Notes under the pieces: model-generated
Seen by the model: the letters and a program-made list of their open reading frames with translations, nothing else
What the model was told of the DNA's origin: nothing
Database searches by the model: none
Program-made: the position numbers and the translations under genes
From: Eledone cirrhosa
Taxonomy: Eukaryota
Direction of reading: 5' to 3'
Length of the DNA stretch: 64,000 nt
NCBI GenBank assembly: GCA_964016885.1
Contig: OZ024747.1
Span: 48,732,001 to 48,796,000 of the forward strand
Part shown: positions 2,872 to 64,000 of the stretch, piece by piece
Layout of the letters: each line of letters opens with the position of its first letter
How positions within the stretch are numbered: position 1 is the first letter of the stretch

Positions 2872-3837
2872 GAATCCCGTTTCAATCGAGGTTAACCACA
2901 GCAAGTATGGTACTCAATACATTAGAAGAGTGTAATCTTCATTTTAAATATAGAAATGGCTTTTACAATAAAGATATATCTAATGCAGTGAATGTATTTA
3001 TCGTATAAATATCATGGTATTTGTTAAATAAGCTAAAAGGGATTTGTTGATTGAGATGAGGTGCAGACGTTTATAGAGATTTATAGATGTTGTGGATGGG
3101 TAGTATGTAATATGTATATCAATATGTATATATCAATATATATATATATATATATATATATATATATATATATATATATATATATATATATATATATATA
3201 TATATATAAGATCAAAAGATGGTTAAAAGAGTTCCATGTATTTTATTATGCACATTTCAAAAACAAATATCATCATGCATTAACATTTGTGTTTTCATCA
3301 GATAAAATAGGAAGACATGATATGAAGGTTAAAAACACTTGTGGATAGTGCAGTTTTAAATCAACATATGAAAAGTAGTTTTAGATTAATGTGTGATATT
3401 GGTGAAAAAAAAAGGGGGGGGGGGGAGGTTGGAAAGGATGAAAAAGAGGAGGAGATGAGAGTAAAAAGTGCGCATGATAAAATACATGGAACTCTTTTAA
3501 CCATCTTTTGATCTTATATATTATGTACACTCCAGTCCTACAAACTGTAGAGTGCTTCTTATCCGATATCTGCATTGCTTTATTGTACTACAATAAAACT
3601 CACCTCCTACATATATATATATATATATATATATATATATATACACACACATATTGATATATATATAATATATATATAATTATATATATAATTATCAGGA
3701 AAGTGCTTTCCTGGTGTTTTCTTTTGGATGAAACTGTTCTAGTCCTGTAAAAGCCATTTCTATATTTAAAATGAAGATTACACTCTACTAATGTATTGAG
3801 TACCATACTTGGTTAACTCCGATTGAAACGGGATTCA
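2872..3837. mobile_element. Nested inverted repeats of PLE pLTR-like families: outer arms 2872-2967/3747-3837, inner arms 3204-3255/3465-3521
   Basis: Arms are reverse complements by eye; the outer family recurs at 31590-31780; GAAACT-GTTCT-AGTC hammerhead 3' half near 3730. Confidence 0.7.
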
Positions 3838-5274
3838 CACACGCACGCACACACACGCACACACACGCACACACACACACACACACACACATACATATAT
3901 ATATATATGTATTTATATATATATGTATATTATTAAATATATTAATATCGTCGACCTTGTAACAGATGATGTGCTTGTAAGTTCAATATAAAATTAAACA
4001 GATATGTAGCCGACACACGAAGATGTTTTGAGTACATTGAATAAATTAGTTCAAAATTAGTTTAGATCCACATACATCACAGAAAGGGTTGTATGCTGAA
4101 GGTTAATGTTTGCAGAATTTTAGAAAATATAATTGGTAGACATTTGAAACACACACACACAGGCTCACATATGCTACGCCACTGGTGCCAAGCTGTATCG
4201 GCCATTGCCGATACAGCATCGGTGGCGTGCAGAAAGGAGACTGGTATGCATAGACGACTAGCATTACATGTATGTACACACACACACACACACACACACA
4301 CACACACACATATATATATATATATATATATATATATATATATATATATGTGTGTGTGTATGTATATATGTATGTATACATATATATGTTTGTATACATA
4401 TATACGTGCTTGTGTATATGTGTGTGTATGCACGAGTGTAGTAGAACGTTAACTCAATGACCACTCAAAACATGTGAGCTCACACAAACACACACATATA
4501 TATATATAGTTCATTTTGCGTATTTATGTGTGTGTTTTTTCATCCAAGCCCTGTCGTCTTTTTGATTCAGTTTCTTCAATCCATCATTGCATTGTCGGTG
4601 TTGATGTTGGTGGTGGTAAAGATAATGATGATACGGTTGTTGTTGATGACGAAGGCGATGATGATGATGATGACGTTCATGACGATAATGATAATAGTGA
4701 TTATGATGATGTTGAGGAAGTACAAAGTGTAAAAAGGATAACGGGTTAGTAAGAGCAACCTTGGGTTATATATATCATGTTTGAGCAGAACCCATTCACG
4801 TATATATAATATAATATAATATAATATAATATAGTAAAATATAATATAATACAATGTAATATAATATAATATAATATAATATAATATAATATAACATAAT
4901 TGTGTCTACTTTTGGCACAAGGCCAGCAATTATCCAGTACATTACTGGTACTTTATTTTTATCGACCCTGTAAGGATGAAAGGCAAAGTTAACTTCGGCG
5001 GGAAATATAATATAATGAAATATAATATAGTATAACGTAATAATATAATGTAATATATATATATATATATATATATATATATAAATAAAAATAGAGAAAT
5101 TAATGTGAGCAAGAAGCCAACAGTAATTCATACATATAAGTGACTATTACGTCAAGATGGAAAATATTTAACGTGTATATATATATATATATATATATAT
5201 ATATATATACACAAATACACACTAACATACATTCACACACATACAACACATATATACATACATCTCATCTCCTC

Positions 5275-5545
5275 ATTCCATCTGTCCCGTAGTTTGGTGG
5301 ATCGTTGAGGCGACACATTACCTGGCAGTCACCTCCTTCCATTCCTCTCGACTCTCCGCTCTCCTCATCGTTTCACCCAGCCTTATGCCGTCCATTCCGC
5401 CATCTTGTCCTCCCATCTATTTCTCTGTCTGTCTCCCCCCCCCCTTCTTGTACTGTTGGCTGCAGGACATATTTGACAAGCCATTGGGCCCTACGAAGAC
5501 CTTCTGGCCTTTGTAAAAAAACGCAAATTGAGATGGTACGGACAT
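5275..5545 (-). mobile_element. RTE-like LINE 3' fragment with an inverted 5' piece
   Basis: Minus strand VLQPTVQEGG..RWEDKMAEWT; plus strand 5483-5545 IGPYEDLLAFVKKRKLRWYGH, which normally precedes it in RTE ORFs. Confidence 0.65.
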
Positions 5546-5610
5546 ACACACACAGACACATACACATGCATACACACACACATATATATATATACATATA
5601 TATATATATA

Positions 5611-5809
5611 TAATGGTTTCTTATATAGGCACAAGGCCAGCAATTTGGAGGGAGGGGGGAAGTCGATTAAATCGATCCCGGTGCGTGACTGGTACTTTAT
5701 TTTATCGACCCCGTACGGAAGAAAATCAAAGTTAACCTCGGCGGGATTTAAACTCATATCATAAAGGGGCGCAAAGTATGGCGTCCGACCCTCTACCGAT
5801 ACTGCCAAA
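5611..5809 (-). mobile_element. tRNA-derived SINE, long variant
   Basis: Similar to the other SINE copies; A-box TGGCAGTATCGG and a B-box-like GAGTTTAAATCC on the minus strand. Confidence 0.85.
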
Positions 5810-62084: not shown

Positions 62085-62396
62085 TCAGAGTATACACTGA
62101 GGATGAAAAACTCAGAGCTGTATGGGAGCATCCCAAAAGTCAGCTCAAAAGTGACACAGAGGAGACTGAGGTTGGCTGGACATGCTCACCGACATCCAGA
62201 GTTGACATTGCACTCAGTGCTCCTTTGGGAGCCCCTACATGGACTCACTAGAAGAGGAAGACCAAGGTTAACATATGTTGATGCCCTAAGGACAGACACT
62301 CGTCTGTTGGAGATGCAGGATATGGCAGCAATAATGAGGGACAGAGACCGCTGGAGAGAACTCGTCCATGGATCTCGGGAATTTTACCCGCCTTAG
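62085..62396 (+). mobile_element. RTE-like LINE 3' fragment embedded in (TA)n
   Basis: QRRLRLAGHAHRH..VLLWEP.HG..RRGRPRLTYVD..MRDRDRWR. Confidence 0.85.
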
Positions 62397-62960
62397 ATAT
62401 ATATATATATATATATATATATATATATATATATATATATATATATATATATATATAAGTGGTTCCACAACAGTTAGTTCACCATACCGGTATGATGAAC
62501 TAACTGTACTGTTGTGGAACTACTTCTACCAAACTCGTCCCATGCTCTGCTACTACGGAAATAACCCTCCACTGTTCTACTATTATATATATATATATAT
62601 ATATATATATATATATATATATATATATATATATATATATGATAAAGAACACAAGAGCGTCTACAACATCAAAAGATTTTTATTGGCTTACAATGTTTCT
62701 TCCTTACGTAACCGTAGGATTCGTCAGAGCTATAAAAGGGGTTTGATTGGTGTTATGGACTCTACCAACCAAACATTCAAGAACAAAGAGTAAAGAGAGT
62801 AAAGAACAAAAGCAGGGGACGATAAGTCTAATTTTGGTGCGGGAGGGTGGGGTTTGGGTCCTTGTTTACTAGCTGTGGTCATATTCATTCCCGGGAGTCG
62901 AGTGGTTAGTTGAGCCATAGATGGGGTGGCGTCGATAACACCAATCAAACCCCTTTTATA

Positions 62961-63005
62961 GCTCTGACGAATCCTACGGTTACGTAAGGAAGAAACATTG
63001 TAAGC
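62961..63005 (+). ncRNA. Hammerhead ribozyme in fold-back 62640-63057; mirror copy at 62686-62730 (-)
   Basis: GCU CUGACGA AUCCUACG-GUUA-CGUAAGGAA GAAAC-AUU-GUA AGC; arms 62640-62755/62935-63051. Confidence 0.85.
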
Positions 63006-64000
63006 CAATAAAAATCTTTTGATGTTGTAGACGCTCTTGTGTTCTTTATCATATATACGGCTCTGCTCCAAAGCATAGAGCTAACTATTATGCTGCCAAT
63101 ACCTTAATGGGACACGGGTATACAATACCTAACTCCTATTAACCTAAGTATATATATATATATATATATATATATACAAATATAAATTCACCGAGAATCT
63201 TATTTCAAGCGCTCCATGGACCAGAAGAGACCAGAGCAATCAACATAAGTTATAAAGGCCATACAAACTGAGACGGCGGTTAAGAAACTATTAACCACCT
63301 ACCCCCCCCCCCCCCCCCAAAAAAAAAGAATGAAGCAAGCTAAACGGATCAAACAAAATAATGCATATATATATATATATTTATATATTTTTATATTATA
63401 TATTTTTAGAACAAATTATTCCTCACAACAAAGAAATAGCTAACTTTTAAAGATTATTCTATTCCATTCTACTTGATGTAACACACTAATCTCAGCATCC
63501 CAACTCCTCCAACCGTAATCTTCTTTGACCATCAATACCTTTATATACAATATGCCTAAACTCATTTACACTAACAACTCTCATTTCTTTTCTTAAAAGA
63601 CACTTGATACCTTATCCACTGATGGCCTATTTATTCATCTACTACCACCAACCTTAAGGATTTATACTGCCCCTTTCCATTCTTAACAATGGTCAATCTC
63701 AACCTGGTTATAAAACCTTACTTATTCATATGTATGTTTGTTTTTGTATTCTTCAATAAACAAAGCTCATTATTTCTGAAGACTGCGGGTAGTGAAGACG
63801 TATGTATTCTTTTATCACCAAGATATTTTGTAATATGTTTTACATAGATCAATAATTAAATGAACATGCAAAGGACTACCCACCCAGAAACGATCGTAAA
63901 ATAATGTGTTTTACTATGAATTAACAGTTTTGTGTTTAATTTCATTGTTTTAATATTTCTATATTTATATATATATATATATATATGTGTGTATGTGTGT

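Follow-up and report, generated by a model that had tools for sequence, protein, structure and literature searches.

Fold-back elements beside (TA)n tracts in Eledone cirrhosa as probable Hydra-clade Penelope-like insertions, and a twin hairpin near their candidate start sites

The 64,000-nucleotide stretch of Eledone cirrhosa DNA analyzed here, referred to throughout as the window (GenBank assembly GCA_964016885.1, contig OZ024747.1, positions 48,732,001 to 48,796,000 of the forward strand), is AT-rich, dense in microsatellites, and carries many short fold-back elements along with copies of Penelope-like elements (PLEs), the retrotransposons closest to telomerase. An earlier note on this DNA, made from the letters alone, had listed 20 fold-backs and read them as a TA-targeting ribozyme system mobilized by PLEs. 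Local inverted repeats sought by minus-strand self-BLAST of the window confirmed fold-backs as features of the genomic sequence at all 20 listed coordinates and added two further inverted repeats (62457-62525 and 38043-38074). The arms measure 20-244 bp, which agrees with the upper but not the lower end of the approximately 45-250 bp proposed before, and are separated by spacers of 0-208 nt; 15 of the 20 elements have 1-8 arm-to-arm mismatches, and in 5 the arms are identical. Their spacing of 3.0 kb per element matches the note's estimate of about one per 3 kb and, with their tails, they occupy approximately 10% of the window, where fold-backs without an open reading frame (ORF) outnumber ORF-bearing copies five to one. 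The PLE copies and fold-backs are listed below under the labels used in the text; no strand is assigned to the fold-backs, "flush" means ending directly at a TA tract, and "hairpin" denotes the bulged motif described further on.

PLE1: 33950-36880, plus strand; 5′-truncated Hydra-clade element, reverse transcriptase (RT) then C-terminal GIY-YIG endonuclease, two in-frame stops
PLE2: 36986-38020, plus strand; decayed Hydra endonuclease region, 3′ end as in PLE1, flush in (TA)n
PLE3: 41519-43388, minus strand; decayed Hydra-like RT and endonuclease fragment of a different family
PLE4: 54579-55709, plus strand; decayed Hydra fragment, minimal canonical hammerhead (core 55577, by eye), tail hairpin 55651-55669 with a 1-nt bulge; parent family of the 62457 fold-back
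3204: 3204-3610; flush minus copy 3465-3204, whose canonical hammerhead (core 3301) lies in the spacer; plus arm short (3466-3521), hairpin 3529-3553 in the tail, which runs to 3610
6874: 6803-7250; tail at left; on the minus strand, hairpin 6869-6830 and a canonical hammerhead with core 6971; inner palindrome 7064-7125
7645: 7601-7700; old, partly deleted fold-back of the 27715 family
9360: 9360-9751; perfect 152-bp arms, tail hairpin 9682-9706, no full hammerhead
23250: 23162-23345; diverged 27715-family fold-back, degenerate hairpin
25662: 25662-26044; kin of 53698 (78% over 71 bp); by eye, the U3:A8 core is degenerate and the tail hairpin a variant
26157: 26157-26568; no hammerhead and no clear hairpin, outside the Hydra assignment
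27715: 27715-27901; type copy of its family, only the 3′ half of the hammerhead left, hairpin 27830-27853
31095: 31017-31208; member of the 27715 family whose centre differs, minus-strand hairpin 31088-31065
31590: 31590-31776; hairpin 31715-31733; its family also has unfolded copies (2873-2967, 3712-3835)
38046: 38046-38151; minimal 27715-family fold-back with approximately 11-bp unique arms and a full tail, absent from the earlier list
39648: 39556-39907; tail-bearing minus copy the longer, canonical hammerhead core 39739, 3′ half of the hairpin only, inner palindrome 39767-39856
39992: 39928-40265; a canonical hammerhead on each strand (minus 40077, plus 40180), minus-strand hairpin 39988-39968
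40393: 40338-40890; arms of 244 bp, a hammerhead on each strand (40578, 40710), no Hydra hairpin in the tail, PLE family unassigned
40920: 40920-41145; fold-back of the PLE1/PLE2 3′ end, tail hairpin 41062-41107 with a long loop
41233: 41192-41449; kin of 40393, without the Hydra hairpin
47212: 47212-47361; covariance-model match 47318-47361 (E 0.046), 3′ half of the hairpin intact
53340: 53340-53613; AC-rich 33-nt tail, no hammerhead or hairpin, family TA-flush in 38 contigs of sequencing run X1
53698: 53637-54001; U3:A8 hammerhead variants on both strands (53808, 53892), variant tail hairpin
57988: 57988-58261; within (TATG)n/(TACA)n, no hammerhead, no hairpin
62457: 62457-62583; fold-back of the PLE4 3′ end with a tail, absent from the earlier list
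62640: 62640-63148; canonical hammerheads on both strands (62727, 62964), hairpin 63060-63081
Mixed joints: 33474-33949; 33474-33579 (53698 family, tailed) head-to-head with 33580-33659 (flush), and 33734-33949 (tailed) with the PLE1 5′ end

The element at 33950-36882 had been called Naiad-type, a label we replace: PLE1 is a Hydra element rather than a Naiad, because its GIY-YIG endonuclease is C-terminal instead of N-terminal and lacks CCHH, its RT has DKT instead of DKA, and its ORF has a CxCx5C linker with CxxC and CxH near the end. As described by Craig et al. (2021, PMC8557442), the Hydra clade has an RT with C-terminal GIY-YIG, a change from DKG to DKT, a CxCx5C linker, near-constant (TA)n insertion and hammerheads, while Naiads have an N-terminal endonuclease and no canonical hammerheads; such a ribozyme is present in 57 of the 73 relatives from other hosts discussed below and in 6 of the 20 fold-backs. 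PLE1, PLE2, PLE3 and 16 of the 20 fold-backs are flush with (TA)n, as in the Hydra clade, and the supplement of the same paper notes a (TA)n preference for Hydra-1_Obim of Octopus bimaculoides. PLE1 has 839 relatives at E≤1e-10; among the 120 listed plus the query, DKT/S occurs in 116 of 121 sequences, CxCx5-6C in 113 and RT before endonuclease in 113, and the RWK motif that Hydra elements have near the N-terminus, in a region lost from PLE1, is present in 87 and in the consensus. Pfam searches with seven ORF pieces gave no significant match for the Hydra pieces and RVT_1 for an unrelated long interspersed element (LINE) piece, and viral contigs contained no relative.

The tie between this element and the fold-back at 40920-41054 stood: the latter is 95-98% identical to the terminal 65-68 bp of the two copies whose 3′ ends lie at 36880 and 38020. 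Similarly, the 62457 fold-back matches the 3′ end of PLE4. The reported TA targeting and the asymmetry, with one arm flush in (TA)n and the other continuing into a tail, were also borne out, as 16 of 20 elements have one end within 3 nt of a tract of at least five TA units and none is flush at both ends (random placement gave a mean of 2.4 TA-flush elements and a maximum of 9 in 5000 placements). At the non-flush end of those 16, the next TA tract lies 36-902 nt away, mostly 55-102 nt, and the four remaining elements (6874, 7645, 53340, 57988) adjoin imperfect TA/TG/TACA runs. The (TATG)n and (TACA)n runs on either side of the 57988 fold-back (57744-58508) are likewise inverted, which hints at another target repeat for this element. 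Inverted repeats that adjoin TA would also be expected of miniature inverted-repeat transposable elements (MITEs) or fold-back DNA transposons of TA-targeting transposases, and three elements (26157, 53340, 57988) have neither hammerhead nor hairpin; in addition, MITEs and unclassified terminal-inverted-repeat families are listed in an octopus annotation (PMC13282606). Such an origin is most unlikely given that no element is TA-flush at both ends, that the arms correspond to PLE 3′ ends, that some copies consist of a single unfolded arm, and that centres vary within a family.

Tails of unrelated families in the window opened with a similar bulged hairpin, and Hydra loci of other hosts were therefore compared. 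The comparison covered 94 loci, 77 on metagenome contigs and 17 in genome bins evidently containing host DNA, and some of them are copies of a single family. The 17 (L078-L094) come from prokaryote genome bins. Their Hydra-clade PLEs are animal ones, and the loci most likely represent host DNA within bins of sponge, coral and bivalve symbionts. At least 150 nt beyond the ORF was available in 73 of the 94 loci, and 57 of these 73 have a sense type I hammerhead. It is followed by the motif RCTC-[5-45 nt]-GAGYRC in 38 of the 57, in all but one of them at 30-61 nt past the cleavage site (37/38), with a second copy 55-83 nt further on in 15 of those loci; most of the 19 without the motif reach TA or the contig edge first. 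The 250 nt after the 57 hammerheads hold 53 motifs against 8 in 81.5 kb of ORF. At ORF starts, the motif lies at most 80 nt upstream of the YSxKNIP codons in 41 of 51 cases, and two motifs are found in 30 of the 41 with enough sequence. The order in the pseudo-long terminal repeat (pLTR) is hammerhead, hairpin 1, hairpin 2, ATG, with two copies of a bulged hairpin of the form GCTC-Y..R-UH-GAGCAC between the hammerhead and the ORF start.

For the stem itself we analyzed 46 distinct hairpin-1 and 35 distinct hairpin-2 sequences. A 2-nt bulge on the 3′ side (TT, TC or TA), beyond which the stem resumes, fits these sequences while other bulge sizes fail, and the inner stem averages 2.85 bp against 0.67 bp in shuffles (maximum 1.11). 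Among the 46 hairpin-1 sequences the first inner pair is T-A in 26 and C-G in 18; the second is G-C in 15, A-T in 15, T-A in 4 and C-G in 4. This alignment-free count is preferred because the count of structure pairs, which found covariation at the inner pair only (UA 32, CG 18), was run on a model-fitted alignment. Several copies in the window have a compensatory A-T closing pair. In published consensus sequences, inspected by eye, Hydra-1_Ajap starts with both hairpins and ends just short of the expected hairpin 1, which is also recognizable in Hydra-2_Amil and Hydra-2_Ajap, with variants in Hydra-1_Crog. Seven of the 94 loci were compared with the Rfam 15 models and none matched at E≤0.5, a search of limited sensitivity, since the same models also missed the minimal hammerheads. 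The twin hairpin next to the putative start sites is well supported as a pattern of sequence and structure. It is apparently undescribed in the literature searched, a scope that leaves aside a supplementary figure on RNA folding at start sites in PMC11167929, Repbase reports and subscription PLE papers; the words "hairpin" and "stem-loop" have no match in the main text and supplement text of PMC8557442.

Within the window, a strict hairpin stands 3-8 nt past the arm end in 9 of 20 tails, compared with 0.31% of random positions. A covariance model built from 74 instances of other hosts only gave 13 matches at E<1 (the E-values are rough), 12 of them in tails of fold-backs or family copies and one antisense of the 9360 tail. 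A looser tail-motif descriptor discriminated poorly, its 24 rows (some of them duplicates) comparing with 7.6 on average in shuffles, and gave way to the descriptor and model from other hosts. Family matches or degenerate forms add 7645, 23250, 39648, 47212, 25662 and 53698, so that about 15 of the 20 elements are Hydra-type insertions of several families. For these, the hairpin and the family matches to ORF copies uphold the earlier proposal of ultra-truncated PLE insertions; the other five (26157, 40393, 41233, 53340, 57988) have no Hydra hairpin and are probably the same type of product from other PLE clades, among which the hammerhead-less 53340, 26157 and 57988 could be Naiad ends.

A descriptor search found 18 hammerheads in the window, 11 with a canonical core, compared with 0.7 and 0.1 in 40 shuffles, while no hammerhead is among the listed Rfam matches for the window (150 of 315), which are microRNA-type noise. 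The description of several fold-backs as carrying back-to-back hammerheads was partly right: a complete canonical type I hammerhead is present in 6 of 20, on both arms of 39992, 40393 and 62640 and on one arm of 3204, 6874 and 39648, but 14 elements are without one. Core variants include U3:A8 in 53698 and CAGAAGA in 40920, the latter common to PLE1 and PLE2. Near Hydra 3′ ends in the window, the hammerhead is canonical in PLE4, a one-base core variant in PLE1 (at 36819) and PLE2, and many stubs are cut within or after the motif. The change of CTGA to CAGA (U4A) is seen at 36819, 37955, 40984 and 53284, that is, in every PLE1-family copy found and one copy of another family. We rejected hammerhead cleavage as the step that sets 5′ ends, as a start at the cleavage site is seen solely in the short arm of 39648 and most copies pass beyond that site. 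Separately, an unpaired canonical minimal hammerhead at 13780-13830 (core 13786, plus strand) has no Hydra hairpin after it, and its flanking repeat is common to 7701-7823 and 13958-14082.

Hammerheads on both arms (39992, 40393, 62640 and, in variant form, 53698) are what one might expect of retrozyme-like self-propagating units, in which paired hammerheads excise an RNA that a PLE then mobilizes. The 27715 family, with seven short copies of similar 5′ limits in 64 kb, could likewise derive from a short non-autonomous RNA, and a preprint ties animal retrozymes to PLE pLTRs (10.64898/2026.07.22.740005). We nevertheless consider this very unlikely, and the "ribozyme system" of the earlier note was not sustained. 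Paired hammerheads sit on opposite strands, so one transcript carries one sense hammerhead and they are unable to form a dimer in one RNA. Computed folding puts the cost of forming a hammerhead inside a fold-back at 12-82 kcal/mol, with a stem I probability of approximately 0 in 12 of 12 cases; the ribozyme in a fold-back transcript is therefore predicted to be buried in double-stranded RNA (dsRNA). The window has no hammerhead-bearing tandem array, and copies of one family, such as those of 27715, differ in their centres, so the palindrome is not the unit that is copied. Opposite-strand hammerheads 100-700 bp apart, the U3-A8 variant, and monomers inactive in vitro have been described previously (PMC4209133).

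Where stopping and continuing copies were aligned, 14 of 31 rows have their insertion end 1-6 nt ahead of hairpin 1, and 12 of 24 have it 3 or 4 nt ahead of hairpin 2; we call these positions sites 1 and 2. Long unfolded copies that end at site 1 include PLE1, whose 3′ end is flush in (TA)n there, PLE2, and loci L008, L022, L056 and L066 of other hosts. L016 folds at site 2, and in the ORF-bearing L017, L044 and L081 the inverted arms stop 3-6 nt short of hairpin 1. Contig L082, from another host, contains two fold-backs of the same build as those in the window, with hammerheads on both strands and a flush arm that stops 5-6 nt ahead of hairpin 1; the second arm carries hairpin 1 and, in the one comparable case, ends 3 nt before hairpin 2. 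At L090 4654-4666 and L082 4514-4573, separate Hydra insertions of different families meet tail-to-tail across one short TA tract. In the window, every flush-ended fold-back pairs one flush arm with one tailed arm, and neither arm is merely a copy of the other, because the flush arm is longer in 3204 and the tailed arm longer in 39648. This strict pairing suggests that both arms come from one RNA. Three joints combine different families (33579/33580, 33949/33950 and 43388/43389) and suggest two RNAs or later deletions; the third is an 18-nt, TA-flush stub of a PLE1-family 3′ end (43386-43403, 1 mismatch) head-to-head with the PLE3 5′ end.

We regard it as probable that the fold-backs are dead-on-arrival insertions of Hydra-clade PLEs, with two internal start sites marked by hairpins and both complementary DNAs (cDNAs) aborted. 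By comparison among loci, the pLTR RNA reads hammerhead, approximately 30-60 nt, start site 1, hairpin 1, approximately 35-60 nt, start site 2, hairpin 2, ATG. The element's GIY-YIG endonuclease would nick (TA)n, which is identical on both strands; the targeting is published, and nicking of two strands, known in vitro for a Poseidon PLE, is extended here to Hydra. The RT would be placed on the RNA by the bulged hairpin and start 3-8 nt upstream on an AU-rich patch, as the end positions indicate, if the protein does bind there. Both target strands would be primed, giving one cDNA per site, and both cDNAs would abort early and be joined head to head, a chemistry proposed from the anatomy of the copies. 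The expected product is a palindrome with one flush arm and another bearing the tail and hairpin 1, in which hammerheads would be passengers of the pLTR, most copies running through the cleavage site. In Poseidon PAc, two internal start sites have been described, with the tail corresponding to the sequence between them, both target strands cut and extended, and the hammerhead dispensable in vitro (PMC11167929). That the two bulged hairpins are RT docking sites, and that the enzyme engages both and primes two cDNAs on the two (TA)n strands in one coupled reaction, is a more tentative proposal drawn from sequence patterns, to which we give somewhat less than an even chance.

Self-priming offers a different account. 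A single cDNA, or an antisense RNA, would turn back on itself at an internal hairpin, for instance stem II of the hammerhead, and serve as its own template, and microhomology between an AT-rich patch and the target would resolve the second arm. Of the two hairpins, one would then mark a start and the other a site of resolution or endonuclease action. Priming of this kind from palindromes where the inverted copies meet has been proposed before (PMC3846280), several centres here have spacers of 0-8 nt, and inner palindromes lie at 7064 and 39767. We find it unlikely: in 3204 the flush arm has the hammerhead core and approximately 200 nt absent from the tail arm, and so is no copy of the tail-arm cDNA; a cDNA begun at site 1 is in turn unable to supply the tail. 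Furthermore, long unfolded copies also end at site 1, and both sites are followed by the same hairpin.

Sequencing reads and contigs were placed over 52650-55900 only, covering 2 of the 20 fold-backs and PLE4, and their summed depth gives no copy number; run X1 is possibly the assembled sample itself. The fold-back families of this segment are abundant in these records, and many copies terminate in (TA)n, among them those of 38 contigs at position 53335 and of 700-990 reads over 53157-53189. In the 53698 family, 38 contigs have non-palindromic sequence upstream of its centre. Runs X1 and X5 include contigs with joints of the fold-back type, and such joints also link ORF sequence to an opposite-strand 3′ end (55153 to 55584, 55186 to 55636). 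We rejected 53179-53294 as a two-family joint, as it is one truncated copy with its own hammerhead variant.

Several observations weigh against the proposal of two-site, aborted Hydra insertions. The GCTC/GAGC stem is near-invariant in other hosts, where 3 of 5 pairs never vary and covariation is restricted to the inner pairs, and many of the compared loci are related to each other. About half of the insertion ends fall elsewhere, by eye mostly in cross-family alignments or duplicates with the subject running into its own hairpin. Nine tails have the strict hairpin, and the further six assignments come from family matches or degenerate motifs seen by eye. The three mixed-family joints do not fit a strict single-RNA model. 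Nearly all 27715-family copies stop 8-17 nt upstream of the segment GTCGAAAC, in the stem II region, as self-priming would have it; six of the seven (6502, 7661, 23286, 27770, 27986, 31147) stop in this narrow zone, which reflects either a strong RT stop or a short non-autonomous RNA. Lastly, none of the reads or contigs listed over 52650-55900 spans a whole palindrome. Together with the identical arms of 5 elements, this last point is what a library or assembly fold-back artefact beside TA tracts would leave; with arms diverged in 15 of 20, ends placed by a constant rule with respect to an RNA motif, matching anatomy in L082 of another host, and the joints in runs X1 and X5, we consider an artefact barely credible.

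The fold-backs themselves are ordinary, as the inverted truncated copy, the tail, (TA)n targeting and opposite-strand hammerheads are already published; Penelope-13_HM of the Hydra clade, for example, is annotated with a 5′-truncated inverted copy and a hammerhead on both strands (PMC8557442). The origin of the inverted copies and tails of PLEs was named an open problem in that paper, and one PLE only has been reconstituted so far (PMC11167929). A duplicated motif, conserved in Hydra elements of many hosts and at a fixed distance from both insertion ends, provides exact mutations to test and a minimal template design. If true, the docking proposal would amount to a cis code for internal initiation and jointly account for the tail, the inverted copy and the microsatellite preference. 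The hairpin also allows thousands of ORF-less palindromic repeats in such genomes to be classed as Hydra PLE debris rather than as MITEs or unknowns, and fold-backs of all kinds, at approximately 10% of the window, would yield long dsRNA if transcribed.

Other repeats in the window include an abundant SINE-like (short interspersed element-like) repeat of approximately 190 bp, often beside TA tracts, in both orientations and once in tandem with a 203-bp period (4896-5003, 5612-5827, 7828-8496, 11005-11193, 12833-13306, 15309-15500, 22940-24238, 57457-57648). A decayed non-LTR retrotransposon occupies 18289-21397 on the minus strand (RVT_1, E 6e-10; weak zf-RVT), with kindred C-terminal fragments at approximately 22193-22576 and 58514-58839, and minisatellites lie at 29106-30049 (22 bp × 43) and 49117-51020 (66 bp × 29).

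Compared with known systems, the fold-backs resemble non-LTR retrozymes (PMC7229834; 10.64898/2026.07.22.740005) in being short, non-coding and PLE-related with type I hammerheads; retrozymes are described as direct tandem repeats of 170-400 bp with a hammerhead per unit and a circular RNA (PMC7229834), whereas the repeats here are inverted, have unique centres and mostly an incomplete ribozyme. The minimal PLE hammerheads of Cervera and de la Peña (2014, PMC4209133) are, as here, type I with a palindromic helix III and mostly in truncated PLEs; the accessible text of that paper has no mention of the CAGAAGA core of PLE1, PLE2 and 40920. Naiad PLEs (PMC8557442) share the (TA)n preference and an inverted copy with a tail, and have remnants in cephalopods, but PLE1 differs from their N-terminal endonuclease, DKA, CxC linker and absence of a canonical hammerhead. 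The inverted 5′-truncated pLTR with a tail (PMC3846280; PMC8557442) is alike in its head-to-head copy and one-end extension; published accounts of the inverted copy invoke endonuclease-mediated resolution or self-priming, while here each end maps to one of two hairpin-marked sites. Hydra PLEs, as described in PMC8557442, are alike in RT and C-terminal GIY-YIG, DKT, CxCx5C, (TA)n and, for some of the copies here, a canonical minimal hammerhead with palindromic stem III, although tails there are 30-40 nt against mostly 55-97 nt here, and the accessible text describes no RNA motif beyond the hammerhead. Poseidon PAc of Anolis (Frangieh et al. 2024, PMC11167929) agrees with the reading proposed here in its two adjacent internal RT start sites, its AT-rich target, and the cutting and extension of both strands.

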